From NCBI GenBank assembly GCA_963762145.1, contig CAVXJS010000011.1, positions 672,001 to 736,000 on the forward strand: 64,000 nucleotides of DNA, given 5' to 3'. The notes below the pieces were generated by a model that saw only the letters and a list, made by a program, of their open reading frames with translations, had not been told where the DNA came from and made no database searches. The stretch's first letter is position 1. Each line of letters begins with the position of its first letter. Below are positions 35,646 through 60,482 of this stretch, in pieces. The DNA comes from an uncultured Candidatus Rokubacteria bacterium. Lineage in GTDB: Bacteria; Methylomirabilota; Methylomirabilia; Rokubacteriales; CSP1-6. Made by a program: the position numbers and the translations under genes.

Positions 35646-35695
35646 TTGACAGGTCACCGGGCCGGAGGCAGGCTATGGTCCGACCAGCCGACCAG
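35646..35695 (+). promoter_or_regulatory. Promoter region with FadR-type operator upstream of the oxidoreductase operon
   Basis: TTGACA at 35646; TGGTCCGACCA at 35676-35686 followed by an extra GACCA half-site. Confidence 0.6.
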
Positions 35696-35728
35696 CGGCT
35701 CACCGGACGCGTTTCGAGGAGGTAGGGC

Positions 35729-36934
35729 ATGGCTCACTTCACCTGCGAGGTCGTCTACCGCGGCATCTTCCAGAAGAACCTGGCCGCGCGCATCTGCCGC
35801 GGCATCGTCCTCTCCGCACGGAAAGCCGGGCGGTGGGGGATCGCCTTTGGACGATACGGGGACAGTCCGCAGCGTAACGGCATCCCGGCCAAGGACTTCG
35901 CGATCGTCGCGGACACGCAGGAAGAGCTCGAGCAGAACATGGCGCGCTACGAGCCCAAGGAGGTGGACGTCACGATCTGCGTGGACGACACGCTCTCGAA
36001 GGGCGTGGAGTCCTGGGCCTGGTACGGGCTCCAGCCGATCAACCGGCTCACCATCTCGGGCGGCACGCTCCTGATGACCTCGCTCCAGAGCCCGGCCGCG
36101 CTGCTCAAGGACATCCACAAGAAGGACGCCCCCTACAATCTGGCCCTCATGCGGGCGAAGGCGTCCTTCTCCGGCCTCTGGGTCTACAAGGAGGATCACA
36201 CCGAGGCCCGCATCCTGGGCGCCCTCGCCAAGATCCAGCCCGAGTTCCTGTCGCTTGACGCGGTCTGCGAGGCCATCAAGGAAGCCGAGTGGGGCTCCGA
36301 CCTCAAGGTGGCTTCGGCCCGCAAGGCCCACGAGCGGCTCGAGACCCAGCCGATCAAGATCACCGAGGGCAACTCGGAGATCCCGTACTCCTTCGAGATG
36401 CCCAAGTGGTGGGAGATGCGGGAGGGCGTGACCATCCCGGCCATCCCCATCGGCAAGCCGATGGAGGGAGGCAAGGGGTACGTGCCGGAGCGCAACCCGT
36501 ACTTCAAGAAGTTCACCACCCGCACCATGCGGCCGGTGATCGACTTCGACAAATGCGTGAAGTGCACCCTCTGCTGGATCCAGTGCCCCGACTCCTGCTT
36601 CGACGTGACCCCGGACGGCCTCTACGACGCCAACATGGAGTCCTGCTGCGGCTGCGGTGTCTGCGAGGCGGTGTGCCCGGCCAAGGACTGCGTCACCATG
36701 GTGCGCGAGGACGCCTTCGAGGACAATGCGAGCCAGTGGGAGATGTGGCGGACCGACAAGGCCACCTACAAGACCTGGATGACCGACAAGATCCACAGCA
36801 AGGAGCACATCACCCGGTCCCACGGCTTCCGCTTCCGCGGCCAGTACGAGGAAGAGATCAAGAAGGAGCTGGAGTCGGGCGGCATCGAGATCACCGCGGG
36901 CATTCCCGGCGAGAACGCCGACTCGAAGAAGTAG
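35729..36934 (+). CDS. 2-oxoacid:ferredoxin oxidoreductase gamma/delta fusion subunit (oxalate oxidoreductase delta-like)
   Basis: Divergent gamma domain lacking GRGGQG, plus 2x[4Fe-4S] (CVKCTLCWIQCP; CCGCGVCEAVCP). Confidence 0.85.
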   Translation: MAHFTCEVVYRGIFQKNLAARICRGIVLSARKAGRWGIAFGRYGDSPQRNGIPAKDFAIVADTQEELEQNMARYEPKEVDVTICVDDTLSKGVESWAWYGLQPINRLTISGGTLLMTSLQSPAALLKDIHKKDAPYNLALMRAKASFSGLWVYKEDHTEARILGALAKIQPEFLSLDAVCEAIKEAEWGSDLKVASARKAHERLETQPIKITEGNSEIPYSFEMPKWWEMREGVTIPAIPIGKPMEGGKGYVPERNPYFKKFTTRTMRPVIDFDKCVKCTLCWIQCPDSCFDVTPDGLYDANMESCCGCGVCEAVCPAKDCVTMVREDAFEDNASQWEMWRTDKATYKTWMTDKIHSKEHITRSHGFRFRGQYEEEIKKELESGGIEITAGIPGENADSKK

Positions 36935-36949
36935 GGGAGGACTGAGACC

Positions 36950-38178
36950 ATGGCAGTCGAGACCAAGCCCGCAGGAGCGGTCGCCGATCACAAGGAGATG
37001 CTCATCTCCGGCAGCGAGGCGTGCGCCGAGGCGCTGACCCTCGCCGACATCGACGTGGTGACCGCGTACCCGATCCGGCCCTACGACACGGTCATGCAGG
37101 CCATCGCCAAGAAGATCGCCAACGGCCAGCTCGAGGCCGAGTACATCGTCGCCGAGGGCGAGCACAGCCAGTTCGAGATCGTCAAGCACGCCTCCACGGT
37201 CGGCGCGCGCGTGTTCTGCGGCTCGTCCGGCGTCGGCTGGATGTACGCGATGGAGTGCCTGACCGTCACCCCGCCGCTGCGCGTGCCGATGGTGTGCATG
37301 GTGGGCAACCGGGCCCTCGACGACCCGGGCGCCTTCGGCGTCGAGCACAACGACGCGCTGGTCGTCCGTGACCTCGGCTGGATGCTGATCTGGGTCGACA
37401 CGGCCCAGGAGATGCTCGACACGACCCTGCTCGCCTACCGCATCGCCGAGGACCGGCGGGTGTTCCTGCCCATCGCGATCTCGGCGGACGGCGCGTTCCT
37501 GACCCACTCGCAGGCGATCTGCCAGGTGCCGACCCGGGGGCTGGTGGACAAGTTCCTCCCGCGCTACGACCGCGGCGACCTGCAGCTGCACCCGGACAAC
37601 CCGATCACGGTGGCGCCCCAGGCCAACGAGGACTGGGTCATCGAGATCCGGCGGCAGAACGACGAGGCCATGAAGCGGGCCACCAGCGTGATCGAAGAGG
37701 CCTACGCTGATTTCGGAAAGTCATGGGCCGCGGTCCCGAGAACCCGTGGTTCGAGGAGTACATGACCGAGGACGCGGAGATCATCCTGGTCGGCATGGGC
37801 ACGATCTCGCTGCCGATGAAGGTCGGCATCCGCAACATGCGGGCCCAGGGCAAGAAGGTCGGCCTGGTGCGGCCGCGGTGGTTCCGCCCGTTCCCGACCG
37901 ACCGGATGGTGAAGGCGCTCTCGAAGGCCTCGGCGATCGGGGTCATCGACCGCGACTACTCCTTCGGCTCGCCATTCAACTCGGGGGTGGTCGCCAATGA
38001 GATCCGGGCCGCGATGTACAATGCGGACAAGCGCCCGCCGCTCCTGAGCTTCATCTGCGGCCTGGGCGGCCGCGAGGTCACCCTGGAGGATGTCGCGAAG
38101 GCGGCGGACATGTGCTACGCGGCCGCGAAGGCCGGCAAGTCGGATCCCAAGACCCACTGGCTGGGCGTGCGCGAGTAG
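36950..38178 (+). CDS. 2-oxoacid:ferredoxin oxidoreductase alpha subunit, oxalate oxidoreductase-like (single frameshift near 37715)
   Basis: AYPIRPY, EGEH, GSSGVG, then DAEIILVGMG, WFRPFP, GLGGRE in another frame. Confidence 0.88.
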
Positions 38179-38199
38179 CGCGAGCGAGAGGAGAGCCAC

Positions 38200-39210
38200 A
38201 TGGCCGATACCGCATTCACGAACGCGACGCAGATCCTGGAGCCCTTCAAGGGCGTCAAGAAGGTCACGATCGAGGAGTACTTCACCTCCGGCCACCGCAC
38301 CTGCCAGGGCTGCGAGTCGGCCCTGGTGATGAAGCTCATGGTCAAGGCGGCGGGCCCGCGCACGATCGTGCTCGGCTCGACCGGCTGCATGTACGTGGCC
38401 AACACCACGTACTACACGACCCCGTGGGTGGTGCCGTGGATGCACACCCAGCTCGGCTCCTCGGGCTCCGCCGCCCTCGGCACCGCGGCCGGGCTCAAGG
38501 CGCTGATGAAGAAGGGCAAGATGAAGTCGGAGCCGATCAACGTCATCGCGTTCTGCGGCGACGGCGGCGGCGCCGACATGGGCCTGGGCGCCATCTCCGC
38601 GACGCTGACCCACAGGGAGTACAACTCGCTGATCCTGATGTACGACAACGAGTCGTACGCCAACACCGACATCCAGCTCTCGGGCTCCACGCCGTACGGC
38701 GCGAACACCACGTTCAGCCCGCCGGGCTCGGTCAAGCGCATCATCCACACCCGCTGGAAGAAGAACACCGCGGGCATGCTGGCGGCCGGGCACCCCGAGT
38801 GCCGGTACGTGGCGACCGTCGATGCCTCCTACGCGGTCGAGATGATGAACAAGGTCCGCAAGGCGCTCACCATCGGCGGGCCGACCTTCATCCACTCGCT
38901 CGACCCGTGCCCGAAGGGCTGGGACTACGACCCGATGCTCTCCCACGAGCTGGGCGAGCTGGCTGTCGAGACCGGTATCTTCCCGCTCTACGAGGTGGAG
39001 GACGGCGTGGTGCGGCACTACGGCAAGACGAAGGCGATCGTCGAAGGCCGTCCGCGCAAGCCGGTTCGCGAGTACCTGCTCAAGCAGGGCCGCTTCGCCC
39101 ACTTCACCGAGGAAGACCTCGACTACTTCCAGTCCAAGGTGGACGAGATGTGGGACAAGTGGGAGATCCCGGGCGTGATCCCGTTCTGGAAGGAGCGCCC
39201 CGGCAACTAG
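38200..39210 (+). CDS. 2-oxoacid:ferredoxin oxidoreductase beta subunit (TPP-binding)
   Basis: GHRTCQGC, TGCMYVANT, GDGG..DNESYANT, PCPKGW. Confidence 0.92.
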   Translation: MADTAFTNATQILEPFKGVKKVTIEEYFTSGHRTCQGCESALVMKLMVKAAGPRTIVLGSTGCMYVANTTYYTTPWVVPWMHTQLGSSGSAALGTAAGLKALMKKGKMKSEPINVIAFCGDGGGADMGLGAISATLTHREYNSLILMYDNESYANTDIQLSGSTPYGANTTFSPPGSVKRIIHTRWKKNTAGMLAAGHPECRYVATVDASYAVEMMNKVRKALTIGGPTFIHSLDPCPKGWDYDPMLSHELGELAVETGIFPLYEVEDGVVRHYGKTKAIVEGRPRKPVREYLLKQGRFAHFTEEDLDYFQSKVDEMWDKWEIPGVIPFWKERPGN

Positions 39211-39260
39211 CGGTCCGCAGCACCAGCAGCGACGCCCAACCCCGACCACAAGGAGGGGAC

Positions 39261-40250
39261 ATGACCCGTCACGGTCGACGCCTCGCGGCGCTGGTCCCGG
39301 CCATCCTGGCCGTCGTATTTCTCTGCTCCCCGGCACAGGCCTGGGAGCCGAGCAAGCCCATCGAGTTCGTGATCCCGGCCGGCACCGGCGGGGGCGCCGA
39401 CCAGATGGCGCGTCTGATTGCGGGCATCGTCGAGAAGCACCGGCTCTCGCCGCGCCCGTTCATCGTGGTCAACAAGTCGGGGGGGGCGGGCGCGGAGGGC
39501 TTCCTCCACGTGAAGGGCAAGAAGGGTGACGCCCACACGATGATCATCACGCTCTCCAACCTCTTCACGACGCCGCTCCACACCGGGGTGCCCTTCGGCT
39601 GGAAGGATCTCACCCCGATCGCGCGCATGGCGCTCGACGAGTTCATCCTGTGGGTGAACGCGGAGACGCCCTACAAGACCGCCAAGGAGTACGTCGCGGC
39701 GGCGAAGGAGCGCTCGGGCGGGGACCGCATGAAGATGGCGGGGACCGGCTCGGCCCAGGAAGACCAGATCCTCACCATCCAGCTCGAGCAGGCCACCGGG
39801 GTGAAGTTCACCTACGTGCCCTTCAAGGGGGGCGGCGAGGTGTGCGTGAACCTCGTCGGCAAGCACGTGGACTCGACGGTCAACAATCCCATCGAGTGCG
39901 CCAGCCACTGGAAGGCGGGGCGGGTGCGCCCGCTGGCCGTCTTCGACACCGCGCGGATCACGGTGCCGGAGTGGAAGGACATCCCGACCGTCAAGGAAGC
40001 GCTCGGCGCGGACATCAGCTATCTGATGCTGCGCGGGATCTTCGGTCCTCCCGACATGCCGAAGGACGCGCTGGAGTGGTACCAGGCCCTGCTGAAGAAG
40101 GTCTACGAGTCCGCCGAGTTCAAGGACTACCTCAACCAGGGGGCCCTCAAGCCTGCCTGGGAGACCGGCCCCGAGTTCGTGCAGTGGCTCGGCCAGGCCG
40201 AGCAGCTTCATCGAGACCTGATGACGAAAGGCGGCCTGCTGAAGAAGTAA
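39261..40250 (+). CDS. tctC: Tripartite tricarboxylate transporter substrate-binding protein (TctC/Bug)
   Basis: Signal peptide, P.KPIEFVIP..GGGAD..AR, VVNKSGGAG, YVPFKGGG. Confidence 0.92.
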   Translation: MTRHGRRLAALVPAILAVVFLCSPAQAWEPSKPIEFVIPAGTGGGADQMARLIAGIVEKHRLSPRPFIVVNKSGGAGAEGFLHVKGKKGDAHTMIITLSNLFTTPLHTGVPFGWKDLTPIARMALDEFILWVNAETPYKTAKEYVAAAKERSGGDRMKMAGTGSAQEDQILTIQLEQATGVKFTYVPFKGGGEVCVNLVGKHVDSTVNNPIECASHWKAGRVRPLAVFDTARITVPEWKDIPTVKEALGADISYLMLRGIFGPPDMPKDALEWYQALLKKVYESAEFKDYLNQGALKPAWETGPEFVQWLGQAEQLHRDLMTKGGLLKK

Positions 40251-40261
40251 CCGTCCCCCGC

Positions 40262-40723
40262 ATGCGGACCGCCGACCTGACGACGGCGCTGATCCTAATG
40301 GCCGGGGGCCTCCTGGTGATCTGGGACGCCCTGCGCCTCGGGATCGGCTGGGGGACCGACGGCCCGCAGAGCGGGTTCTTCCCGTTCTGGCTCGCGGTGC
40401 TGCTCCTCGCATCCTGCGCGGCCATCGCGCTGCAGGCCTGGCGGCGGTCGAGCTCCGCCCCCTTCGTCACCCGGCAACGACTCGCGCCCGTCTTGACCAC
40501 GCTGCTGCCCGCGACCGGCTTCGTGGTGCTGACCCAGTTCATCGGGCTCTACGTGGCCACCTGCGCCTTCATGGCCCTGTACATGCGCTGGATCGGCCGC
40601 TACCCGTGGCTGGCGGTGATCTCGGTGAGCGTGCTCTTTCCGCTGGTGACCTTCGTGGTGTTCGAGAAGTGGTTCCTCGTGCCGATGCCCAAGGGTCCGC
40701 TCGAGGCCTGGCTGGGCTACTGA
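40262..40723 (+). CDS. tctB: TTT small membrane subunit
   Basis: Four TM helices, GPQSGFFPF, FLVPMPKG. Confidence 0.88.
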   Translation: MRTADLTTALILMAGGLLVIWDALRLGIGWGTDGPQSGFFPFWLAVLLLASCAAIALQAWRRSSSAPFVTRQRLAPVLTTLLPATGFVVLTQFIGLYVATCAFMALYMRWIGRYPWLAVISVSVLFPLVTFVVFEKWFLVPMPKGPLEAWLGY

Positions 40724-40726
40724 TTC

Positions 40727-42247
40727 GTGGGATTCGAGAATCTGCTCCTCGGCTTCCAGGTGGCGCTGCAGCCCTACAATCTCGGGCTCGCGGTCCTCGG
40801 CATCACCCTCGGCACCATCATCGGGGTGCTGCCCGGGCTCGGCGGAGCCAACGGCGTCGCGATCCTGCTCCCGCTCACCTTCTCGATGGCCCCGACCTCC
40901 GCCATCATCCTGCTCACGAGCCTCTACTGGGGCGCTCTCTTCGGCGGAGCGATCACCTCGATCCTCTTCAACATCCCGGGGGAGCCGTGGTCGGTGGCCA
41001 CCACCTTCGACGGCTATCCGATGGCGCGGAACGGGCAGGGTGGGGAGGCGCTCACCGCCGCCTTCACGTCGTCGTTCGTCGGCGCGCTCTTCTCGGTCAT
41101 CCTGATCACCCTCTTCGCCCCGATCCTGGCCGAGATCGCGCTGAAGTTCGGGCCCCCCGAGTTCTTCGCGATCCAGCTCCTGACCTTCTCGTCGTTCATC
41201 GGCCTGGGCGGGGGCAACCCGATCAAGTCGCTGGTATCCATCCTGCTGGGCTTCATCCTGGCCTCGGCCGGTCTCGACATCGTGACCGGGCAGCTTCGCC
41301 TGACCTTCGGAATCACCGAGCTGATGAAGGGCTTCGACTTCATCGTGGCCGTCATCGGCCTCTTCGGGGTGGGCGAGATCCTGCTCTCGGTGGAGGAAGG
41401 ACTGTCCTTCCGCGGGGTGAAGGCCGCCATGAACCCGCAGGTGGTCTGGCAGACGTGGAAGAGGCTGCCGCGCTACTACCGCACGTTCATCCGCAGCGCC
41501 TTCATCGGCTTCTGGATGGGCTTCAAGCCGGGTGGGGCCACCCCCGCGTCGTTCATGAGCTACGCCTTCGCCAAGCGCTTCTCCCGGCACCCCGAGCGGT
41601 TCGGCAAGGGCGAGATCGAGGGCGTGGTGGCGCCGGAGACCGCGGCCCACGCGGCGGGAGGCGCGTCCCTGCTGCCCATGATCACCCTGGGCATTCCGGG
41701 CAGCCCCACCGCGGCGGTGATGCTGGGCGGGCTCATCATCTGGGGCCTCCAGCCGGGGCCCATGCTGTTCCGCGAGCGGCCCGACTTCGTCTGGGGCCTC
41801 ATCGCGAGCATGTACACCGGCAACGTGATCGGGGTGCTGATGGTGCTGGCCTTCGTGCCGCTCTTCGCGGCCATCCTCCGGATCCCGTTCCCGATCCTGA
41901 CCCCGCTCATCATCGCGGTCTGCGCGGTGGGCTCCTACGCCGTCCACGACAGCATGGTGGACATCTGGTATATGCTGCTGTTCGGTGTGATTGGCTATGT
42001 GTTCAAGAAGCTCGACTACCCTCTCGCCCCGCTGGTCCTGGCGCTCGTGCTCGGCGATCTGGCCGAGAACGCCCTGCGCCAGAGCCTGATCATGTCGCAG
42101 GGCTCGCTCCTGATCCTGTTCACGCGGCCCATCGCCGGCGCCATCAGCGCGGTGGCCATCTTCTTCTTCGCGCTGCCGCTGCTCGCTCCCTACTGGCGGC
42201 GCCGTCGGGCCCAGGACGAGACGCCCGCGGCGGCGGCGCGGCACTAG
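40727..42247 (+). CDS. tctA: TTT large permease subunit
   Basis: GVLPGLGG, NIPGE..SVATTFDGYPMA, GVVAPETA, TLGIPGS, GLQPGP. Confidence 0.94.
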   Translation: MGFENLLLGFQVALQPYNLGLAVLGITLGTIIGVLPGLGGANGVAILLPLTFSMAPTSAIILLTSLYWGALFGGAITSILFNIPGEPWSVATTFDGYPMARNGQGGEALTAAFTSSFVGALFSVILITLFAPILAEIALKFGPPEFFAIQLLTFSSFIGLGGGNPIKSLVSILLGFILASAGLDIVTGQLRLTFGITELMKGFDFIVAVIGLFGVGEILLSVEEGLSFRGVKAAMNPQVVWQTWKRLPRYYRTFIRSAFIGFWMGFKPGGATPASFMSYAFAKRFSRHPERFGKGEIEGVVAPETAAHAAGGASLLPMITLGIPGSPTAAVMLGGLIIWGLQPGPMLFRERPDFVWGLIASMYTGNVIGVLMVLAFVPLFAAILRIPFPILTPLIIAVCAVGSYAVHDSMVDIWYMLLFGVIGYVFKKLDYPLAPLVLALVLGDLAENALRQSLIMSQGSLLILFTRPIAGAISAVAIFFFALPLLAPYWRRRRAQDETPAAAARH

Positions 42248-42268
42248 GCGGCTGACCGGAGACTCCGA

Positions 42269-42963
42269 ATGGATCTGGATTTCCTGATCGGTATCGGCAA
42301 GATCGTGCTCATCGACCTGGCCCTGGCCGGCGACAACGCCCTGGTCATCGCCCTCGCGGTGCGCACGCTGCCCCCCGCCAGCAGCTCCAGGGCCGTATCT
42401 GGGGCACCGTCGGCGCGGTGGGGCTGCGGCTGGCCTTCATCTTCATCGTGACCTACCTCCTCGCCATCCCCCTGCTGCAGGTCGTGGGCGGGCTGCTGCT
42501 CGTCTGGATCGCGCTCAAGCTCGTGCTCCAGACGGATGCGCACGGCGGCGAGAGCGTGAAGCAGGGCACGACGCTGCTCGGGGCCATCTGGGTCATCCTC
42601 GTGGCCGACGTCGTCATGAGCCTCGACAACGTGATCGGGGTCGCCGCCGCCGCCGAGGGCGACATGCGCCTGGTCGTCTTCGGCATCGCGCTGTCCATCC
42701 CGATCGTGGTCTGGGGGTCCGGGGTGCTGGCCCGGCTGATGAACCGGTACCCGTGGATCATCCTGGTGGCGGGCGGCATCCTGGGCGAGGTGGCGGGCAA
42801 GATGATGCTGCACGACCAGTTCATCGTGAGCCGGTTCGGCAACTCGCCCGACGCGGTGGAGTTCGCGCTGCGCATTGGCCTCGCGATCGCCATCATGCTG
42901 GTGGGCTGGCTGGTCACGCGCCGGCGGGCCGCGGTGGCGAACGACGGGGCCGCCGCACGGTGA
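42269..42963 (+). CDS. TerC/YjbE family membrane protein (frameshift in C-run near 42371)
   Basis: IDLALAGDNALVIALAVR, ADVVMSLDNVIGVAAAA, GIALSIPIV. Confidence 0.88.
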
Positions 42964-43724
42964 GCTCGGCCGGCGAGGGGCCGAGTCTCGAGCCGGTCAA
43001 GTCCACCCGGATCTACGAGGAGATCGTCCGCCAGGTCAAGCAGCTCATCGGGGAAGGGCGGCTCAAGTCCGGTGACCGCCTTCCGCCCGAGCGGGACCTG
43101 GCCGAGAAATTCATGGTGAGCCGCACCTCGGTGCGGGAGGCGCTCCGGGCGCTGCAGAGCCGCGGCCTCATCGAGATACGGGCGGGAGAGGGCGCCTTCA
43201 TCCGCGACGTCTCGGTGGAGACGCTGATCGAGCCGCTGGCCCTGGTCATCTTGCCGCATCGCGAGGCGGTCGGCGAGCTCTTCGAAGCCCGCCGGCTGCT
43301 GGAGCCCGCCATCGCGGCCCTCGCCGCGCGGCGGGCGACGCGCGAGGAGATCCAGGAGATGGAGCGCATCCTGGAGGACCAGGCCAAGGAAGTGGCGGCC
43401 GGCCGGACCGGGATGCTCCAGGACGGGGCGCTCCACGCGGCCATCGCCAACAGCGCCCACAATCGCGCCATCACCCGCATCGTGAACGCCCTGATGGATC
43501 TGCTCACCCAGAGCCGCGAGGAGTCGTTGCACACGCCCGGCCGGCCGACGCGGTCTCACGAGGACCATCGCCGCATCCTGGAAGCGGTGCGCCGGCGCGA
43601 CGAGGTGGCGGCTCATCGCTCGATGCTCGACCACCTCATCGCGGTGGAGACCCTGGTGACCGGAGCCCATGCCGACGATCGGAGCGCGACGCCCGTCGCC
43701 CCCAGGAGAAAGCCGCGCCCCTGA
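42960..43724 (+). CDS. FadR/GntR family transcriptional regulator (PdhR/LldR/GlcC-like)
   Basis: GDRLPPERDLAEKFMVSRTSVREALRAL..G.GAF, FCD domain with conserved His. Confidence 0.93.
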   Translation: MSSAGEGPSLEPVKSTRIYEEIVRQVKQLIGEGRLKSGDRLPPERDLAEKFMVSRTSVREALRALQSRGLIEIRAGEGAFIRDVSVETLIEPLALVILPHREAVGELFEARRLLEPAIAALAARRATREEIQEMERILEDQAKEVAAGRTGMLQDGALHAAIANSAHNRAITRIVNALMDLLTQSREESLHTPGRPTRSHEDHRRILEAVRRRDEVAAHRSMLDHLIAVETLVTGAHADDRSATPVAPRRKPRP

Positions 43725-43759
43725 CCCGTCTGTAAGTGCTTGTCTTGCAACATTAATCG

Positions 43760-43788
43760 TTGACATCTCGGGTCGAGCGCCCTACCAT
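43760..43788 (+). promoter_or_regulatory. Sigma70-type promoter upstream of ppdK
   Basis: TTGACA-17nt-TACCAT. Confidence 0.6.
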
Positions 43789-43861
43789 GGCTGATTAACG
43801 CAGGCCCACAGGTGGGCCTGTGTCTTTTTCTCTGCCACCGAATCGCTCAGGGGGTCCTGTG

Positions 43862-46687
43862 ATGGCGCAGGCCGGAAGTCGGAAGAGCGCGCGACAGCGC
43901 GCTGCCCGTCCGTCCAGCGCCACGCCCAAGTACGTGTACTCCTTCTCCGGCGGCAAGGCGGAGGGGTCGAGCGCGATGCGCGACCTGCTCGGCGGCAAGG
44001 GCTGCGAGCTGGCCGAGATGACCAAGATGGGCGTGGCGGTCCCCCCCGGCTTCACGGTCACCACCGAGGCGTGGGCCGCCTACGACGCGGCGGGGAAGAA
44101 GCACCCGACCGGCCTCTGGACCCAGGTGATGGCCCACCTGGCCCGCCTCGAGGCCGCGGCGGGCAGCCGACTGGGCGATCCGGTGCGGCCGCTGCTGGTC
44201 TCGGTCCGGTCCGGGGCGCGCGTCTCGATGCCCGGCATGATGGACACCGTGCTGAACCTGGGGCTCAACGACAAGTCGGTCGAGGGGCTCGCGGCGCGGA
44301 CCCGGAACGAGCGCTTCGCCTGGGACTGCTACCGCCGCTTCATCACGCTCTTCGGGGACGTGGTGCTCTCCATCGATCGGCACACCCTGGACGCGCTTCT
44401 CGAGACCGCGAAGACGCGCGCGGGGGCCAAGACGGATGCCGACCTTCCGCCCGCGGCGCTACGGGAGCTGGTCGCGGAGCTGAAGAAGGTCGTGCAGGCC
44501 AAGACGGGCCGGCCGTTCCCGCAGGATCCGCACGAGCAGCTCCGGCTGGCCATCAACGCGGTCTTCGAGTCCTGGTGGGCCAAGAAGGCGGTGGACTACC
44601 GGCGCATCCATCGCCTGCCCGACAACTGGGGCACCGCGGTGACCGTCATGGCGATGGTCTTCGGCAATCTCGGGTCGACCTCGGGGACCGGGGTGTGCTT
44701 CTCGCGCGATCCGTCGAGCGGCGAGCGGCGCTTCTTCGGCGAGTTCCTCGTCAACGCCCAGGGTGAGGACGTCGTGGCGGGGATCCGCACCCCCGAGCCG
44801 ATCGAGGCCCTCAAGACGCGCATGCCCGCGGTGTACCGCGAGCTCACCGCGATCAAGGATCGGCTCGAGCAGCACTACCGCGACATGCAGGACATCGAGT
44901 TCACGGTGCAGGAGGGAACGCTCTACATCCTGCAGACGCGCTCCGGAAAGCGGACGGCGGCGGCGGCGGTGCGCATCGCGGTGGAGATGTTCGAGAAGGA
45001 GAAGCGCCTCGATCGGGACACCGCGCTCCTGCGGGTCGAGCCGGCCTCGCTCCACCAGCTGCTCGTCAAGACGGTGGACCCGAGCGCCCGCTACACCGCC
45101 ATCGCCACGGGTCTCCCCGCCACCCCGGCCGCGGCGGTGGGGAAGGTGGTGTTCGATCCGGAGAGGGCGGTGGACATGGCCCTCCGGGAAGAGGCGGTCA
45201 TCCTGGTGCGCGCGGAGACCTCGCCGGAGGACGTGGCGGGCATGCACGCCGCGCAGGGCGTGCTCACCTCGCGCGGCGGCCTGACGTCCCACGCGGCGGT
45301 GGTGGCACGCGGCTGGGGCAAGTGCTGTGTGGTCGGCGCGGGCGACGTGGTGGTGGACGAGGAGAACCGTCTGTTCCGGGCCGGGCGCGCGGTCGTGCGC
45401 GAGGGGCAGGTGGTCACGCTCAACGGGGCCACCGGCGAGGTGATCGTGGGCGCCCAGCCGCTCGTGGACCCCAAGCTCTCCGGCGAGTTCCGGAAGCTCC
45501 TCGGCTGGGCCCAGGAGCGCGCGACCACCACGGTTCGCGCCAACGCGGACACGCCCGCGGACGCGGTCAAGGCCCGGGAGTTCGGTGCGGTGGGCATCGG
45601 CCTGGTCCGCACCGAGCACATGTTCTTCGGGGACCAGCGCATCCCGATCGTGCGCGACATGATCATGGCGAGCGACGTCCAGGCCCGGAAGAAGGCGGTC
45701 GACCAGCTGCTGCCGTTCCAGCGCGAGGACTTCATCGGCATCTTCCGGGTCATGGCGCCGTACCCGGTGACGATCCGGCTGCTGGACCCCCCGCTGCACG
45801 AGTTCCTCCCGAAGTACAAGGAGGTGCTCGAGGAGTACACGCGGCTCGACGCCCGCGGCTTCAACCCGGAGCGCCACTCCGAGCTGGGCGCGATCAAGGC
45901 CCGGCTGGAGTCGCTCCTCGAGGCGAACCCGATGCTGGGCCACCGCGGCTGCCGGCTCGGCATCACGTTCCCCGAGATCTACGACATGCAGGTGCGGGCC
46001 ATCATGGAAGCGGCCTGCGCGGTGGCGGCGGAGGGCGTGACGGTGGAGCCCGAGATCATGATCCCGCTCACCGGCACGGTGGCCGAGATGAAGCTGACGC
46101 GCGAGATGACCGACCGCGTGGCCCGGCAGGTGCTCTCGGAGACGGGGCGGAAGGTCGCGTACTCGGTCGGCACCATGATCGAGGTGCCCCGCGCGGCGCT
46201 GATCGCGGACCGCATCGCGCAGTACGCCGAGTTCTTCTCGTTCGGCACCAACGACCTGACCCAGATGACGTTCGGGTACAGCCGGGACGATATCGGCAAG
46301 TTCCTGCCCTACTACCTCGAGAAGAAGCTGCTGCCGAACGATCCCTTCGCGGTGCTCGACCAGGACGGGGTGGGAGAGCTGGTGCGGGTCGGCATCGAGC
46401 GCGGCCGGCAGGCGGTGCCCACGCTGAAGGTGGGCATCTGCGGTGAGCACGGCGGGGAGCCCTCGTCGGTAGAGTTCTGCCATCGCGTCGGGATGACCTA
46501 CGTCTCCTGCTCCCCCTACATGGTGCCGGTGGCGTGGCTCGCGGCGGCCCAGGCCGAGATCAAGGGGCCCCGGCCCGAGCACGCCGAGGCGCGCTCGAAG
46601 GCGAGCCGAGCAAATACAAGAAAAGCAGTCACGGTAGCAGCACGCGGAGCAACACGAACAGGCCGGAAAAGGAGACACACGCGGTGA
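43862..46687 (+). CDS. ppdK: Pyruvate phosphate dikinase
   Basis: [71 protein letters not shown]. Confidence 0.97.
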
Positions 46688-48438
46688 AGCTTTCAGGCGC
46701 CCGGATCGTCCTCGAGTGCATCAAGCGGGAAGGCGTCGATCTCATCTTCGGTCTGCCGGGCGGCGCGGTCCTGCCGATCTACGACGCCCTGTACGACTTC
46801 GAGGGCCTGCGCCACGTCCTGGTACGGCAGGAGGCCGCCGCCGGGCACGCGGCGGAAGGGTACGCGCGGACATCCGGCAAGGTCGGCGTCTGCCTCGTCA
46901 CCTCCGGGCCGGCCGCGACCAACCTGGTCACCGCGCTCCAGGACGCCCTGATGGATTCGATCCCGATCGTGGCCTTCACCGGGCAGGTGCCGACCACCTC
47001 GATCGGCAACGACGCGTTCCAGGAGGCCGACAACGTCGGCATCACCCGCTCGGCCACCAAGCACAACTTCCTGGTGAAGGACGGCAAGGACCTGGCCCCG
47101 ATCATCAAGGAGGCGTTTCACATCGCCTGCACCGGGCGCCCGGGGCCGGTCCACGTGGACCTCCCGAAGGACATCCTGGTCAAGGAGTGGACCTTCGAGT
47201 ACCCCGAGCGCGTGCACCTGCGCTCGTACAACCCGACGTACGAGGGGCACCCCGGGCAGATCAAGAAGGCGGCCCGCTCGATGGTGCGAGCCAAGCGGCC
47301 GGTGCTCTACGTGGGCGGCGGCGCGATCTCCTCGGACGCCTCGCCCGAGCTGCGGGAGCTGGCGGACCTGACCCAGATCCCGCTCACCCAGACCCTCATG
47401 GGCCTGGGCTCGTTCCCGATGGCCGATCCGCTCTCGCTCGACATGCTCGGCATGCACGGCACCTACTACGCCAACATGGCGGTGCACCACTCGGACTGCC
47501 TGGTGGCGGTGGCGGCGCGCTTCGACGACCGGGTGACCGGACGGGTCGACATGTTCTCGCCGAACGCGGAGATCATCCACATCGACATCGATCCCTCGTC
47601 GATCTCGAAGAACATCAAGGTGGACATCCCGATCGTGGGCGACTGCAAGCGCGTGCTGCGCCGGCTGGTGGAGGCGGTCCGCGAGGAGCTGAAGGACGGG
47701 GTCCCGGCCGCGGTGACCGAGGGCCGGCGCCAGTGGGCCGCGCAGATCGCGGACTGGAAGCGCGACTTCCCGCTGCGCTACGACTGGGACGACGACGTGA
47801 TCAAGCCCCAGTACGTCATCCAGGAGCTCTCGAATCTGACCCAGGGCGAGGCCTACGTGGTCACCGGGGTGGGCCAGCACCAGATGTGGGCCGCCCAGTA
47901 CTACCGCTTCAAGCACCCGCGCCGCTGGTGCACGTCGGGCGGCCTCGGCACCATGGGCTACGGGCTGCCCACCGCGATGGGGGTGCAGGCCGCGCATCCG
48001 GGCAAGCTGGTGGTCAACATCGACGGCGACGGCTCCTTCGCCATGAACAGCCAGGAGCTGGCAACCTGCTTCACCGAGAACCTTCCGGTCAAGACCATCA
48101 TCATCAACAACAGCGGGCACGGGATGGTGCGGCAGTGGCAGCGGATCATCTACAAGGAGCGGTTCTTCGCCATCGACCTGCCCGGCATCCCGGACTGGGT
48201 CAAGCTCGCGGAGGCGTACGGCTGTGTGGGCCTGCGCGTCACCAAGCCGAGCGAGGTGGTGCCCGCGCTCGAGAAGATGCTGAGCACGCCGGCCCCGGTG
48301 GTCCTGGACGTCTGCGTGGACAAGGACGAGTGCGTGTTCCCGATGGTGCCGGCGGGCGGAGCCAACAAGGACATGATCTTGTCGCTGCCGACCCGCGAGG
48401 CGGCAGAAAAAGCCGCCAAGACCCAGACCGGGTTCTAG
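46684..48438 (+). CDS. ilvB: Acetolactate synthase large subunit
   Basis: [59 protein letters not shown]. Confidence 0.95.
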
Positions 48439-48447
48439 GAGCGCGCG

Positions 48448-49032
48448 GTGGCCGATACGAGCAAGCATACGATCGCGGTGCTGGTGGAGAACAAGTTCGG
48501 CGTGCTGTCCCGCGTCGCGGGGTTGTTCTCCGCGCGCGGGTACAACATCGAGAGCCTGTCGGTCGGGGAGACCCTCGACCCGTCCGTCTCGCGCATGACC
48601 CTGGTGGTGCGGGGGGACGCCTTCGTCATCGAGCAGGTCATCAAGCAGCTGCACAAGCTGATCGACGTCATCAAGGTCACCGACCTCAGCGAGGAGAACC
48701 ACGTGGAGCGCGAGATGCTCCTGCTGAAGGTCAATGCCGAGCCGGCGAATCGCGCCGAGATCCTCCGCCTGGGCGACATCTTCCGGGCCAAGGTGGTGGA
48801 CGTGACGCCCACCGCCTACACCCTCGAGGTCACGGGAGAGGAGTCCAAGATCGAGGGCATCATCGATCTCCTGCGGCCCTTCGGGATCCAGGAGATCGTC
48901 CGCACCGGCAAGGTGGCCATCGCGCGGGGCCCCAAGACCCGGCTGCGCAAGGTGGAAGAGCGGCTCGGCAAGTCCCGCGAGACGCCCCGTCCGCCGAACG
49001 ACGATCCGAAGGTGGTCGGGTTCGCGGACTGA
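48448..49032 (+). CDS. ilvN: Acetolactate synthase small subunit
   Basis: VENKFGVLSRVAGLFSARGYNIESL ACT domain. Confidence 0.95.
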   Translation: MADTSKHTIAVLVENKFGVLSRVAGLFSARGYNIESLSVGETLDPSVSRMTLVVRGDAFVIEQVIKQLHKLIDVIKVTDLSEENHVEREMLLLKVNAEPANRAEILRLGDIFRAKVVDVTPTAYTLEVTGEESKIEGIIDLLRPFGIQEIVRTGKVAIARGPKTRLRKVEERLGKSRETPRPPNDDPKVVGFAD

Positions 49033-49071
49033 TTTCCCACGAAGGAAACCGAGAGAAAGGCACGAGGAACC

Positions 49072-50076
49072 ATGCCGGCCAAGATCTTCTACGACCAGGA
49101 CGCTGACCTGGGCCTGCTGCGCGGCAAGACCGTCGCCATCATCGGCTACGGCAGCCAGGGGCACGCCCACGCCTTGAACCTGAAGGACTCCGGCCAGAAC
49201 GTGGTGGTCGGCCTCTACAAGGGCTCGAAGAGCTGGGCCCGGGCCGAGAAGGACGGGCTCAAGGTCACCACCGTGAACGACGCGGCCGCCGCGGGCGACA
49301 TCGTGATGATCCTGCTGCCCGACCAGACCCAGCGGCAGGTCTTCGAGGAGTCCATCAAGGGTGTCATGACCAAGGGCAAGATGCTGATGTTCGCCCACGG
49401 CTTCAACATCCACTTCAACCAGGTGGTGCCGCCCCCCGATGTGGACGTCTCGATGATCGCGCCCAAGGCGCCCGGCCACGTGATGCGCGACCTCTTCACG
49501 CAGGGGCCGGGCGTGCCGGGCCTGGTCGCGGTCTACCAGGACGTCTCGGGCAAGGCGCGGGATCTGGCGCTGGCCTACGGCAAGGGCGTCGGCTGCACGC
49601 GGGCGGGCGTGATCGAGACCACTTTCAAGGAAGAGACCGAGACCGACCTCTTCGGGGAGCAGACCACGCTCTGCGGCGGCGTCTCCCACCTGATCAAGGC
49701 GGCCTACGAGACGCTCGTCGAGGCGGGGTACCAGCCCGAGGTCGCGTACTTCGAGTGCATGCACGAGATGAAGCTGATCGTAGATCTCTTCTACCAGGGC
49801 GGCCTCGCCTACATGCGCTACTCGGTGTCCGACACCGCGGAGTACGGCGACTACACCCGCGGGCCGCGGATCATCGATGACCGGACCAAGCTGGAGATGA
49901 AGAAGATCCTCTCCGAGATCCAGTCGGGCCAGTTCGCGCGCGAGTGGGTGCTGGAGAACCAGGCCCACCGCGCCGGCTTCCTCGCCATGCGCAAGCGGGA
50001 CGCCGAGCATGGGATCGAGGAAGTGGGTGGCCGGCTGCGCAAGATGATGGCGTGGATCAAGCCTCCGCGGGAGTGA
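49072..50076 (+). CDS. ilvC: Ketol-acid reductoisomerase
   Basis: [43 protein letters not shown]. Confidence 0.97.
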
Positions 50077-50104
50077 TCGAGCCCGCGGAGCCGCGGCGGG
50101 TCGT

Positions 50105-50731
50105 GTGCGCGTTCCGGTAGCCGCGGAGGGCTGGCCGTTCATCCTGCCTCCCGCGGCCGCCGCATGTATCATGGCCGGGATGGGCTGGGTGGGCACCGCG
50201 GCGGTGCTCGCCGTGGTGGCGCTGGCCTTCCTCGGGTTCTTCCGGGATCCGGACCGGACCGCGCCCGATCTGCCCGGGGCGGTGCTGGCTCCCGCCGACG
50301 GGCGCGTGATGGTCATCACCGAGGCGGTGGACCCGTGGGTGGGCCCGGCGGTGCGGATGTCCATCTTCCTGTCGCCGCTGGACGTGCACGTCAACCGCGC
50401 GCCGATCGGGGGCCTGGTCAAGAACGTGGAGTACGTGGCGGGCCGCTTTCTCGCGGCCTACCGGCCGGAGGCGTCGGAGCAGAACGAGCGGTGCGCGGTG
50501 AGCCTCGACGGTGAGCGGGCCCGCGTGATGGTGACGCAGATCTCGGGCGTCCTGGCCCGCCGCATCGTGTGCCGGGTTCGGCCGGGCGACACGCTGCGGG
50601 CCGGGGAGCGCTACGGTCTGATCCGCTTCGGATCGCGGACGGATCTGGTGGTGCCGCGGGGTACCGAGGTGCGGGTGCGGGTGGGGGATCGAGTGCGGGG
50701 CGGGGAATCGGTGATGGGGGTGCTGCGATGA
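50105..50731 (+). CDS. psd: Phosphatidylserine decarboxylase
   Basis: [26 protein letters not shown] self-cleavage motif. Confidence 0.92.
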
Positions 50732-51582
50732 GACGGAGACACGCGAGCGACGCGGGGCGCGGCCCGCGTCGGAGAAAGTGGCAGGAGCTGCGCCAGCAGC
50801 CGCGGCGCGGAATCTACCTGCTCCCGAGCCTCCTGACGACCGGCAACCTGTTCTGCGGGTTCCTGGCCCTGGTGCTGGCCTCGCAGCAGCGCTTCACGGA
50901 GGCGGCGGTCTCCATCTTCGTGGGCATGCTCCTGGACATGCTGGACGGCAAGGTGGCGCGGCTCACCAAGACCACCAGCCAGTTCGGCGTCGAGCTCGAC
51001 TCGCTCGCCGACGTGGTCTCCTTCGGGGTCGCGCCCGCGTTCGTCCTCTACTCGATGGCCCTGGCCCCGCTGGGCCGCGCGGCCTGGCTCGGCGCGTTTC
51101 TCTTCGTGATCTGCGGCGCCCTCCGCCTCGCGCGATTCAACGTGTACGCGGGGGTGACCGACAAGCGCTATTTCGTCGGCCTGCCGATTCCCGCCGCCGC
51201 CGGCGTGGTGGCCTCGACGGTCCTGCTGCTGGGCACCGACGACATCCCGCGCTGGCTGGGCGCCGCGATCGCGGCGGGGACCTACCTGGTCGCGATCCTG
51301 ATGGTCACCACGTTCCGGTACTACAGCTTCAAGGAGATCGATTTCGCCCGTCGCCGGCCCGCCGGGGTGCTGGTGCTGGTCGTCCTCGGCGTCCTGATCG
51401 TCGCCACCCACCCCCAGTGGTTCCTGTTCCTGCTCTTCTTCGCCTATGCCCTGAGCGGCCCGACGCGCCCGTTCTGGGCGCGGCGTCGCGACGCGATCCC
51501 GGCGGTTCCCATCGGCTCACCTCCCGCGCTGCCCGCGGAGCGGGAGCCGAGGGATACCAGCGAGCGGGACCGGAGGATCTGA
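50728..51582 (+). CDS. pssA: CDP-diacylglycerol--serine O-phosphatidyltransferase
   Basis: [41 protein letters not shown]. Confidence 0.93.
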
Positions 51583-51584
51583 CC

Positions 51585-52679
51585 ATGGCGACGTACAAGA
51601 TCGCGGTGCTGCCCGGCGACGGGATCGGGCAGGAGGTGACGCCGCAGGCGCAGCGCGTTCTCCAGTTCGTCGGCCGGGCCGCCGGCATCGGTTTCGAGTT
51701 CGAGAACGGGCTGGTGGGCGGCTCCGCCATCGACGCGGCCGGGACCCCGCTGCCGCCCGCGACGCTGACGCTCTGTCAGCAGGCGCACGCCATCCTCTTC
51801 GGGGCGGTGGGCGGGCCCAAGTGGGACACGCTGCCGCAAGAGCAGCGCCCCGAGCGCGGGTTGCTCGGCATCCGCAAGGAGCTCGACCTCTTCGCCAACC
51901 TGCGGCCGGCGACCTGCTTCCCCATGCTGGTGGACGCCTCGCCGCTCAAGCGCTCGGTGGTCGAGGGCACCGACATCATGGTGATCCGCGAGCTGACCGG
52001 CGGGCTCTACTTCGGCGAGCCGCGCGGGCGCGAGGAGTTCGCCGACGGGGGGGCGCGCGCGGTCAACACGATGGCCTATACCTCGCGCGAGATCGAGCGG
52101 GTGGCCCGCGCCGCCTTCGACGTGGCGATGAAGCGCAAGAAGCGCCTGGCCTCGGTGGACAAGGCCAACGTCCTGGTGGTCTCGCAGCTCTGGCGGGAAG
52201 TGGTCACGCGGGTGGGGAAGGACTATCCCCAGGTGCAGCTCGAGCACGTGCTGGTGGACAACTGCGCGATGGCGCTGGTCCACAAACCCACCCACTTCGA
52301 CACGATCGTGACCGAGAACACCTTCGGCGACATCCTGTCGGACGAGGCGGCCATCCTCGCCGGCTCGATGGGCATGCTGCCGTCGGCCAGCCTGGGCGGC
52401 AAGGGCGGCCGGATGGGGCTGTTCGAGCCGGTCCACGGCACCGCGCCGGACATCGCGGGCCAGGGGGTGGCCAACCCGATCGCGGCGATCCTGTCCGCGT
52501 CCATGCTGCTGCGCTACTCCCTCGAGCGGGGCGCCGACGCCGACCGGGTGGACGCGGCAGTCCTGCGCGTGCTGGAGCGGGGGCATCGGACCCGGGACAT
52601 CCACTCGGCCGGCACCAAGCTGGTGGGGACGGCGGAGATGGGAGACCTCATCATGGCCGAGGTCGAGAAGTCGTATTGA
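51585..52679 (+). CDS. leuB: 3-isopropylmalate dehydrogenase
   Basis: [45 protein letters not shown]. Confidence 0.96.
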
Positions 52680-52709
52680 AATAATCAGATAAATAGGAGA
52701 CTGTGAGCT

Positions 52710-53714
52710 ATGGCTTCAGGTGTCGTGGTGGCGGTGGTCGGGGTGACCGGTGCGGTGGGGCAGACCACGCTGAAGATCCTCGAGGAGCGCAAGTTCCCGG
52801 TGCGGGAGCTGCGGGCCTTTGCGTCCGCACGCTCGGCCGGGAAGACCGTCACCTTCAAGGGCGAGCCGGTGCGGGTCGAGGCCGTCGGTCCCGGCGTCTT
52901 CAAGGGAGTCGACATCGCGCTCTTCTCCGCGGGCTCGGCCCAGTCCAAGGAGTATGCCCCCCAAGCCGTGAGGGCCGGTGCCCTGGTGGTGGACAAGTCG
53001 AGCGCGTTCCGGATGGACCCGCAGGTGCCGCTGGTGGTGCCCGAGATCAATGCGCACGCGGTGCGCGGTCACCACGGCATCGTGGCGTGCCCGAACTGCA
53101 CCACCATCGTCACCGTGATGCCGCTCAAGCCGCTCCACGAGGCGGGTCGGCTCCGCCGGGTCGTCGCGACCAGCTTCCAGGCGGTCTCGGGCGCCGGCGT
53201 CAACGGGGTGGACGAGCTGCGGACCCAGACGCTCGCGTGGGCCCGGGGTGAAGCGATCACGCCGAAGTTCTTCGCGCATCAGATCGCCTTCAACGTCATT
53301 CCCCACATCGACAAGTTCGGGGCCGACGGCTACAGCGGCGAGGAGATCAAGCTGGTCAACGAGGTCCGGAAGATCCTCGAGCTGCCCGACCTGCCGGTCT
53401 CGCCCACCACGGTGCGCGTGCCGGTGTTCACCGCCCACTCGGTGGCCGTGAACGCGGAGACCGAGGTCAAGATCGGCCGCGAGCGGGCGCGCGAGGTCTT
53501 CGCCGGCTTCCCGGGGCTCAAGCTCTGGGACGAGCCCGCCGAGAATCGCTACCCGATGCCCATCGTGGTGGAGGGCCAGGACGATTGCTACGTGGGCCGG
53601 GTGCGCGAGGACCTGACGCTGCCGAACGGCCTCAACTTCTGGGTGGTGGGCGATCAGCTCCGCAAGGGCGCCGCCCTGAACGGCATCCAGATCGCGGAGC
53701 TGTTGATCCGCTGA
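52710..53714 (+). CDS. asd: Aspartate-semialdehyde dehydrogenase
   Basis: GVTGAVG, SSAFRMDPQVPLVVPEIN, PNCTT, QAVSGAG, DQLRKGAALN. Confidence 0.96.
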   Translation: MASGVVVAVVGVTGAVGQTTLKILEERKFPVRELRAFASARSAGKTVTFKGEPVRVEAVGPGVFKGVDIALFSAGSAQSKEYAPQAVRAGALVVDKSSAFRMDPQVPLVVPEINAHAVRGHHGIVACPNCTTIVTVMPLKPLHEAGRLRRVVATSFQAVSGAGVNGVDELRTQTLAWARGEAITPKFFAHQIAFNVIPHIDKFGADGYSGEEIKLVNEVRKILELPDLPVSPTTVRVPVFTAHSVAVNAETEVKIGRERAREVFAGFPGLKLWDEPAENRYPMPIVVEGQDDCYVGRVREDLTLPNGLNFWVVGDQLRKGAALNGIQIAELLIR

Positions 53715-53721
53715 TCCTCTG

Positions 53722-54509
53722 ATGGGCGAGGCTGGGCGCACCGTCCGGCTCGACGCTCGCCTACGAGGGCACGGACCTGCACGGCTGGCAGGTGCAGCCG
53801 GGGCTCGCCACCGTGCAGGGCCTCCTGATGGAGGCGGCCGCGCGGGTGCTGGGCGGGCCCGTGAAGATCACCGGAGCGAGCCGGACCGACGCGGGCGTGC
53901 ACGCGCTTCGACAGGTCGCGAGCCTCTCCATCTCATCCGCGGTCGCCCCGGCGGCGCTGCACCGCGCGCTGAACGCCCTGTTGCCTCCCTCGGTGCGCGT
54001 GCTCGACGTGCGCGAGGCGCCCGCCGGCTTCGACGCGCGCCGCTGGGCGCGCGGGCAAGCGCTACGCCTACCTGATGGATCGCGGCCAGCAGGCCGATCC
54101 GTTCCTGCGGCGCCACGCGTGGCATACGCCGTTCCCGCTCGACGTGGACGCGATGGCGGCGGGGCTCGCGCTCGTGCGCGGCAAGCACGACTTCAGCGCC
54201 TTCTGCGCCGCGGCGGGCCGCGATCGCACGCCCACCTGCACGATCACGTCGGCGCGGGTGGTGGCCCGGCACGAGCGTCTGGCGATCTGCCTCTCCGCCG
54301 ACAGCTTCCTGCACCACATGGTCCGCAACATCGTCGGGAGCCTGGTCGAGGTCGGACGGGGCGCTCGGCCGCCCGGGTGGATCGGCGAAGTCGTGGACGG
54401 GCTGGACCGGAGGCGGGCCGGACCGACCGCGCCGGCCCAGGGGCTCGTGCTGGTCCGGGTCCTGTACGGTCCCGTCACGGGGCCTCGGGCACTGGGAGGC
54501 GCCGGGTGA
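53722..54509 (+). CDS. truA: tRNA pseudouridine(38-40) synthase (two frameshifts, near 53752 and 54055)
   Basis: LAYEGT..GWQ.Q, ASRTDAGVHA, GKHDFSAF, FLHHMVRNIVG, TAPAQGL. Confidence 0.9.
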
Positions 54510-54856
54510 TGCCGGACGATCTCCCGACAGGCGGCCCGCCCCCGGCTGAGGACGGGGAGGGGTCGCGCCGCGGCAAAGGTTTCAAGGCGCGGAAGCGGGA
54601 GGACCATGCCCTTGTCCTGATCCGGGATCTCCTGGCCAGTCTGGACAATCCCGCCCAGGCCCGGCGTCTCCTCCTGGAGCTGAGCCGCTACTACGATCCC
54701 ATCCTGGGGGGCGGGATCGTGGAGGTCCGCCATCAGCGGGAGATCATGAATGCGATCGAGGCCGGGCGGCTGGAGGAGGCCCGGGCCCTGGTCCAGGCCC
54801 GATACGACCTCTACATCAAGGACCGGGCGCACCTGGGCCGTGGGGAGGAAGGCTGA
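54509..54856 (+). CDS. Hypothetical protein
   Basis: ORF coupled to the truA stop; typical codon bias. Confidence 0.6.
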   Translation: MPDDLPTGGPPPAEDGEGSRRGKGFKARKREDHALVLIRDLLASLDNPAQARRLLLELSRYYDPILGGGIVEVRHQREIMNAIEAGRLEEARALVQARYDLYIKDRAHLGRGEEG

Positions 54857-54864
54857 CGATTGCC

Positions 54865-54893
54865 TTGACACTGGTCTGACCAGTGCCTAGAAT
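54865..54893 (+). promoter_or_regulatory. Sigma70 promoter of the fdh operon with a FadR-type palindromic operator in the spacer
   Basis: TTGACA-17nt-TAGAAT; CACTGGTC-T-GACCAGTG perfect palindrome at 54869-54885. Confidence 0.75.
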
Positions 54894-57900: not shown

Positions 57901-58055
57901 AGACCCACCAGATCGGCATCCCGTGGCACTGGGGCTACAACGGCATCTCCAAGGGCGACATCACCAACGATCTCTCCGCGACGGTGGGAGACCCGACGGT
58001 CTACATCCAGGAGACCAAGGCCTTCCTCTGCAACGTGAAGAAGGGGGAGGTGTAG
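54945..58055 (+). CDS. fdnG: Selenocysteine-containing formate dehydrogenase alpha subunit (FdnG/FdoG-type, Tat-exported); UGA at 55521-55523 = Sec
   Basis: SRRDFLK; CPYCAVGC..LCPKG; HQARV-U-HSATV..FGRGAMT in one continuous frame; ALRGHANVQGATD; FPEHYEP. Confidence 0.93.
55535..55553 (+). promoter_or_regulatory. Bacterial SECIS element
   Basis: GGUCCCAGCUCUGGGGACC hairpin starting exactly 11 nt after the UGA, as in E. coli-type SECIS. Confidence 0.8.
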
Positions 58056-60478: not shown

Positions 60479-60482
60479 CGCC

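Follow-up and report, generated by a model that had tools for sequence, protein, structure and literature searches.

Transcriptional regulators of the FadR subfamily recognize palindromic operators with the consensus TKGT-N3-ACMA, and Arg, Ser and Gly at positions 28, 40 and 59 of the helix-turn-helix (HTH) domain accompany G/C in the TKGT box (PMC4494728). Described members include LldR of Corynebacterium glutamicum (PMC2602784) and LldR, GlcC and PdhR of Escherichia coli, where a site with the same core as the operator considered here is located upstream of glcD (PMC10272880). In the oxalate oxidoreductase (OOR) of Moorella thermoacetica, Arg31 of the motif YPIRP is an oxalate-binding feature that works with Asp116 in a bait-and-switch mechanism, and canonical OOR converts oxalate to two CO2 without formation of formate (PMC5020499). 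Here we analyse a stretch of 64,000 nucleotides of an uncultured Candidatus Rokubacteria bacterium (hereafter the window; all features located in it are on the plus strand), for which the original prediction, made from the sequence alone, had proposed that a shared operator TGGTCnGACCA links an operon for an OOR-like enzyme and a tripartite tricarboxylate transporter (TTT) to an operon for a selenocysteine (Sec)-containing formate dehydrogenase (FDH). In our reading, the FadR-subfamily protein encoded in the first operon represses both operons until a small acid, probably oxalate, is bound. We give this reading a probability of about 0.55, because control of a shared regulon by this one FadR is highly probable and oxalate as both signal and substrate is somewhat favoured.

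Both motifs were found where the original prediction had placed them, and the gene run oxidoreductase-tctCBA-terC-FadR as well as the Sec-containing FDH are as it described them. Operator 1, TGGTCCGACCA, occupies positions 35676-35686 and is accompanied by an additional half-site GACCA at 35690-35694; the tandem element (35676-35694) overlaps the predicted transcription start of the OOR-like operon. The promoter of this operon (35646-35674) is composed of a -35 box TTGACA (35646-35651), behind which operator 1 starts after 25 bases, and of CAGGCT (35669-35674), a probable but weak -10 box assigned by its 17-bp spacing. Relatives have TTGAC at the corresponding position together with stronger -10 boxes, e.g., TAGGGT or TATTCT. 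Operator 2 is a 17-base palindrome, CACTGGTCTGACCAGTG (54869-54885), which lies, as proposed, between the -35 and -10 boxes of a near-consensus fdh promoter (54865-54893) consisting of TTGACA (54865-54870), a 17-bp spacer and TAGAAT (54888-54893). The placement relative to the predicted promoters supports repressor-type operator positions in both cases.

The presence of a shared and conserved FadR-type operator at the two promoters is supported by a comparison of related loci, in which the sets of loci overlap and the genomes are kin and hence do not represent independent draws, although the flanks and the centre base of the site vary freely among these relatives. The palindromic core retained at both promoters is GGTC-n-GACC. 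At the OOR-like promoter, GGT-N3-ACC follows directly behind the -10 region in all 29 delta-subunit loci with upstream DNA among the best 30 of 54 matches, and nearly all of these carry the second half-site four bases further on. A larger set of 80 loci includes 54 with upstream DNA, 51 of which have the exact site and the other three a one-base difference. Upstream of FdnG orthologues the exact core is present between the -35 and -10 boxes in 22 of 31 cases and a one-base variant in one, in most genomes without the tandem half-site. The site at this promoter is also kept where other families have a Cys-type FdnG. In genome G035, the identical promoter arrangement including the site was seen for an FDH3-type operon that is not orthologous. 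Among distant FDH-like genes (40-55 % identity), none of 19 loci showed a TTGAC-spacer site, and a single adjacent site was found in G060. In genus g22 the fdh site is absent and the OOR site is retained.

The motif count alone proves little, because Markov models lead to an expectation of 5.7-10.2 copies of TGGTCnGACCA in the 6.26-Mb genome, in which only two exact copies occur, both in the window, and because TGGT-N3-ACCA reaches two copies in 5 of 100 window shuffles. A count-based significance of the 11-mer was therefore dropped, as the motif is not over-represented. It is the conservation at orthologous promoters which shows that the motif is not due to chance. As controls, none of 31 ppdk promoters and 1.4 % of random 260-bp windows contained the operator, and TTGAC followed by the site yielded 247 matches, summed over 61 genomes of the order, versus 71 for the reversed pattern. 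Outside the Rokubacteriales no genome-wide enrichment of TTGAC plus site was seen (59 matches versus 70 for the control in 20 genomes). A position weight matrix scan of the genome itself gave two clear sites, one further site at C11:435237, and then noise. Of a further 38 exact matches from relatives, many were located in open reading frames and were set aside, 40 more TTGAC-plus-site matches were mixed, and 84 and 97 additional motif matches in relatives fell outside the inspected sets.

The likely reader of the operator, as judged from sequence, is the FadR-subfamily protein encoded at 42960-43724, whose start overlaps the terC stop codon. It is composed of a GntR-type HTH domain (PF00392, 75.6 bits) and an FCD domain (PF07729, 92.5 bits), both above cut-off, and was found in 46 of the 61 genomes. 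Its residues R45, S57 and G76 have, in our own mapping, the spacing of HTH positions 28/40/59 (PMC4494728), and a TKGT-N3-ACMA palindrome is present near its own operon. The FCD metal site is represented by D155, H159, H203 and H225, i.e., one Asp and three His, which were matched to LldR by sequence pattern rather than by structure; within the range that could be aligned, 35 linked FadRs share them. The protein remains below the NCBIfam equivalog cut-offs for LldR (123.9/311), GlcC (96.9/301) and PdhR (108/330) and is only distantly related to C. glutamicum LldR (PDB 2di3, E 4e-15). Nine GntR genes are present in the genome, three of them with an FCD domain, and the operon's FadR is the sole LldR/PdhR/GlcC-like one. 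What ties the site to FadR is the gene order in three other families of the class, f8, f10 and f11. There, fadR is the leading gene of the operon and the same site lies behind its promoter in nine of ten loci, with a variant in the tenth, and is accompanied by one to three extra half-sites. By its sequence arrangement this is the pattern of autoregulation.

A third site was found outside the window, upstream of a korA-korB-glcD-glcE-glcF-cupin-lutA-lutB-lutC operon (C11:781082 onward, operon region 780900-791500). It has the tandem geometry of the OOR site in reversed orientation and lies some 15 bases ahead of the -35 box, a position from which the sign of a presumed FadR control cannot be told. 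Exact copies are present in 15 of 16 genus g1 loci and in 3 of 13 others, one-base variants occur in G029, G030 and G033, and the site is absent in 7 of 7 loci examined in genus g22. The linkage of korAB to glcDEF was observed in 18 of 20 loci examined, the other two being cut by contig ends; the glc subunits do not reach their cut-offs, and the lut genes were named from the LdhH model and from sequence reading. A ferredoxin gene is preceded by the site in four other genera, not in the window genome. Judging from these distributions, the old core of the regulon in the class is an autoregulated fadR-OOR-TTT unit, to which fdh and kor-glc-lut were added in the Rokubacteriales, because outside this order no enrichment of the site is seen and FdnG was detected in 0 of 9 f8 genomes that carry the OOR-like enzyme (with the FdnG query used; all 5 f8 genomes tested have FDH-like genes of other kinds). 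The proposal that FadR represses both operons thus holds with regard to the conserved operator, its likely reader and the repressor-type positions; the scope of two operons was too narrow, since the site is also present at korAB-glcDEF-cupin-lutABC and, among some of the relatives, at genes for a ferredoxin and an RNA-binding protein. The fdh site is real and conserved; the proposed coupling to formate oxidation is not obligatory, as the 8 of 31 FdnG promoters without the site and the f8 genomes show.

Three further sites were observed. In eight genomes of the genus, including the window genome, the operator is found in the -35/-10 spacer of a gene for an RRM-type RNA-binding protein (C16:41649-42040). 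The high-scoring site at C11:435237 of the window genome precedes the promoter of an iscR-iscS-iscU-iscA-hscB cluster by 50 bp. In G002 and G003, a gene for a CoxL-like molybdoenzyme has the operator in its promoter spacer; that upstream region is lacking from the window-genome orthologue.

The enzyme encoded in the first operon consists of a delta subunit (35729-36934) with domain III and two [4Fe-4S] clusters, whose best PDB hit is 5c4i_B and whose best NCBIfam model is NF045790, below cut-off, an alpha subunit (36950-38178) with YPIRP and the switch loop RALDDPGAFGVEH, and a beta subunit (38200-39210) with thiamine pyrophosphate (TPP) and the proximal [4Fe-4S] cluster (best PDB hit 5c4i_C, E 1e-88). 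The beta subunit occurs in 51 of the 61 genomes, the main matches being 85-100 % identical, and a plasmid search with it gave no match. Arg31 within YPIRP and Arg109 are both present, YPIRP being kept in 68 of 70 alpha-containing loci in which both motifs are visible. The OOR models NF045790-2 are the best-scoring NCBIfam models for the enzyme, and its clade is sister to the Moorella-type OORs (FastTree support 0.91). The databases label the enzyme as pyruvate ferredoxin oxidoreductase, a label that does not agree with YPIRP in place of YPITP and with PorA/PorB scores that are below cut-off and below those of the OOR models.

Our best guess for the effector of FadR, by analogy, is oxalate, because FadR, site and TctC of the same kind accompany the true OORs of relatives. 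Family f11 has Moorella-type enzymes that pass the NCBIfam OOR cut-offs, in operons with terC and a related FadR; the f11 FadRs share the pocket motifs FE-R, D-x3-H, [ST]RE-S and RP-x2-S plus two more His residues, the site is present in five of seven f11 OOR loci with fadR, with a variant in one more, and the f11 TctC proteins are 59-65 % identical to that of the window. The true Moorella-type OOR operons of families f9 and f11 contain fadR, a gene for a CDC48-like AAA ATPase, split gamma/delta genes, tctCBA and terC.

Several observations weigh against repression by FadR of both operons with oxalate as the signal. Asp116 is replaced by Ala in the window alpha subunit and in all 120 close homologues, while the sister clade keeps Asp; the switch loop RALDDPGAFG[VCT]EH is fixed across the clade down to about 62 % identity, with an Asp gained three residues earlier. 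The NCBIfam OOR cut-offs are missed by the delta (81.8/230), alpha (360.6/500, intact orthologue P0003) and beta subunits (349.2/590), and G098 and G103 hold both OOR clades, a hint of different substrates or conditions. No oxalyl-CoA decarboxylase, oxalate decarboxylase or OxlT was found above cut-off in the 88 %-complete genome (best scores: oxc 300/739, and frc just under its cut-off with 483/504; OxdC and OxlT also below). Co-control of the FDH is left without an explanation, because canonical OOR yields no formate and none of oxc, OxdC and OxlT passes its cut-off. The site is missing from 8 of 31 FdnG promoters (G024, G032, G037, G040, G046, G048, G050 and G055), and the targets glcDEF and lutABC suggest glycolate or lactate. 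Finally, LldR/GlcC-type boxes are common to paralogues, and a similar box accompanies a second FadR that is present in four relatives.

The alternative that survives best, which we regard as possible though rather unlikely, leaves regulator and regulon unchanged and replaces oxalate as the signal by glyoxylate, glycolate, lactate or oxamate. In one variant, GlcDEF would oxidize glycolate to glyoxylate, which the TPP enzyme would convert without coenzyme A (CoA) to formate and CO2 (or it would cleave oxalate in this manner), and the formate, once exported, would be oxidized by the FDH. This would provide a direct reason for the co-control of the FDH, is compatible with an FNT-family channel encoded in the genome, and agrees with the position of the third site ahead of classic GlcC/LldR targets, with the clade-wide replacement of Asp116 and with the coexistence of both clades in two genomes. 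It is opposed by the retention of Arg31, the binder of the second carboxylate, by the use of the same kind of FadR, site and TctC in true OOR operons, by the occurrence of the enzyme without this FDH in 9 of 9 f8 genomes and without the fdh site in genus g22, and by the scores of the glcDEF subunits, which make their own substrate uncertain. A bolder extension, which we consider doubtful, is that the Asp116-less clade forms formate CoA-independently, with oxalate or glyoxylate as its source, and is wired by the FadR regulon to the periplasmic FDH, forming a respiratory route for C2 acids that is nearly universal in Rokubacteria; if true, this route would have been missed by surveys of oxalate degraders using frc/oxc markers, in a group that is abundant in soil and uncultured.

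It is improbable that only the OOR site belongs to the linked FadR and that the sites at fdh and kor serve a different factor which recognizes a similar box, or are of minor effect, without a true shared regulon. Such a factor is conceivable as the box is common to LldR, GlcC and PdhR types, as most fdh sites have no tandem half-site, and as an incomplete assembly could be missing a paralogue; a second FadR paralogue with similar sites does occur in G002, G003, G007 and G008. In the window genome, however, no second LldR-like FadR was found, the three promoters have one and the same core, the OOR and kor sites agree in their 4-bp tandem geometry, and the four paralogue-bearing genomes have no close FdnG match. 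The second paralogue, which was absent from the 88 %-complete window assembly when searched for, is apparently leaderless, has two similar promoter sites and precedes a branched-chain-type ABC transporter in these four genomes. That both palindromes arose by chance or are part of the promoter sequence itself is next to negligible, for although the genome count lies under the Markov expectation and some shuffles equal the window count, the core is invariant across families while centre base and flanks vary, and ppdk promoters have no site.

Under repression by FadR with oxalate as the signal, an unliganded FadR dimer would cover the start site of the OOR-like operon, where a second dimer may occupy the tandem half-site, and another would repress the fdh operon from the -35/-10 spacer; as fadR is part of the OOR-like operon, its own gene would also be repressed. 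Oxalate, presumably imported by TctABC, would bind to the metal site of the FCD domain and loosen DNA binding. The TPP enzyme would then oxidize oxalate to two CO2 without CoA and pass low-potential electrons to ferredoxin, and the periplasmic FDH, derepressed together with it, would transfer electrons from formate via FdnH/NrfD to the quinone pool. Formate for this step would be supplied by further sources present alongside oxalate in soil, not by a canonical OOR reaction. FadR would likely act at korAB-glcDEF-lutABC as well.

The remaining genes of the OOR-like operon encode the TTT proteins TctC (39261-40250), TctB (40262-40723) and TctA (40727-42247), identified by Pfam, sequence and synteny, and a YjbE-like TerC membrane protein (42269-42963). 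The order delta-alpha-beta-tctCBA-(terC)-fadR-ppdk is retained in most of the 80 loci. A terminator-like hairpin (43798-43823) follows 3' of fadR, and ppdk has a separate promoter (43760-43788) without operator. A one-base frameshift interrupts the alpha gene near 37710-37720, and terC is frameshifted near 42380; both are likely assembly errors, because the alpha frame is intact in close relatives (409-aa orthologues, two of which differ from the window alpha by a one-base deletion in the latter) and because other genes of the assembly are also split, as is apparent from sequence for truA (window 53722-54509) and parts of the glc/lut operon (C11:786700-791000). The delta subunit has a C-terminal extension of about 70 aa beyond the Moorella protein (36720-36934), for which no family match was obtained. 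Contigs from four RNA-library soil runs cover OOR-like genes of relatives; as the runs were chosen by that gene and contigs cannot rank expression, they are no evidence of induction.

The second operon encodes an FdnG-type FDH alpha subunit (54945-58055) with Sec193 specified by an in-frame TGA (55521-55523), which belongs to the formate dehydrogenase-N alpha family by its score (TIGR01553, 1140 versus a cut-off of 814), its signal for export by the twin-arginine translocation (Tat) pathway and its Sec/Cys ligand. It is followed by genes for an FdnH-type Fe-S subunit (58058-58837) and an NrfD-type membrane anchor (58830-59648; both 58058-59648) and, after a hairpin at which the fdh transcript may terminate, by the maturation genes fdhD and fdhE (59729-61376). 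Across the order the active site of FdnG alternates between Sec (TGA) and Cys. Many families, not including genus g1, have a small gene (about 80-100 aa) between promoter and FDH gene, whose product in FdnG loci ends with RRAWEE.ASPE.

With this analysis, an enzyme that ranks among the most conserved of an uncultured order of soil bacteria gains a proposed substrate and a scheme of control that can be tested. If oxalate is the substrate, Rokubacteria would become candidate oxalate oxidizers that employ an OOR-type route in place of Frc/Oxc, with relevance to oxalate turnover in soil, and oxalate or formate would suggest themselves as enrichment substrates. The Asp116-less clade represents a natural test of the bait-and-switch mechanism of OOR.

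Compared with Moorella-type OORs, the window alpha subunit has about 41-46 % identity to their alpha subunits and carries Ala for Asp116 and Asp for Pro113 in the switch loop. Residues of the window enzyme also align with Gln211, Tyr50 and Asn143 of Moorella OOR, which we presume to have functional roles there. In both delta subunits, domain III is devoid of the glycine-rich loop that has a role with CoA. The delta/alpha/beta architecture, Arg31 in YPIRP and Arg109 are likewise common to the M. thermoacetica enzyme (PDB 5C4I; PMC5020499) and that of the window, whereas the C-terminal extension of delta and the scores below the NCBIfam cut-offs set the latter apart. The host of the former is an acetogen; that of the window is not, as far as tested in a partial examination. 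With the formate dehydrogenase-N type (TIGR01553) the window FDH shares the Tat signal, the active-site Sec, the Fe-S subunit and nearby FdhD/FdhE, and it differs by an NrfD-type anchor in place of FdnI and by the FadR-type site in its promoter. C. glutamicum LldR is, as predicted for the window FadR, a FadR-subfamily repressor with a Zn site of Asp plus three His, and its main site, TTGTGGTCTGACCATGA, has the core of the window operator with a weaker second site beside it; it controls lactate and fructose genes, in contrast to the TPP oxidoreductase, TTT and FDH genes predicted for the window FadR (PMC2602784). The E. coli regulators LldR, GlcC and PdhR use a TGGTCnGACCA-type box, show dual activator/repressor behaviour and have glcDEF and lactate dehydrogenase genes among their targets, which are split among three proteins where one FadR would cover them in the window genome; unlike in the window, none of the targets described in the available part of that study is an OOR-like enzyme, a 2-oxoacid:ferredoxin oxidoreductase (OFOR) or an FDH (PMC10272880). 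A description of the regulon or of the enzyme clade was not found in the open literature (subscription papers, supplements and RegPrecise being outside the search); PMC13768988, PMC11045627, PMC11312239 and bioRxiv 235028 contributed no information about the regulon. The kind of system, a FadR-type box with a carboxylate effector, is known; its target set and the enzyme clade are new.

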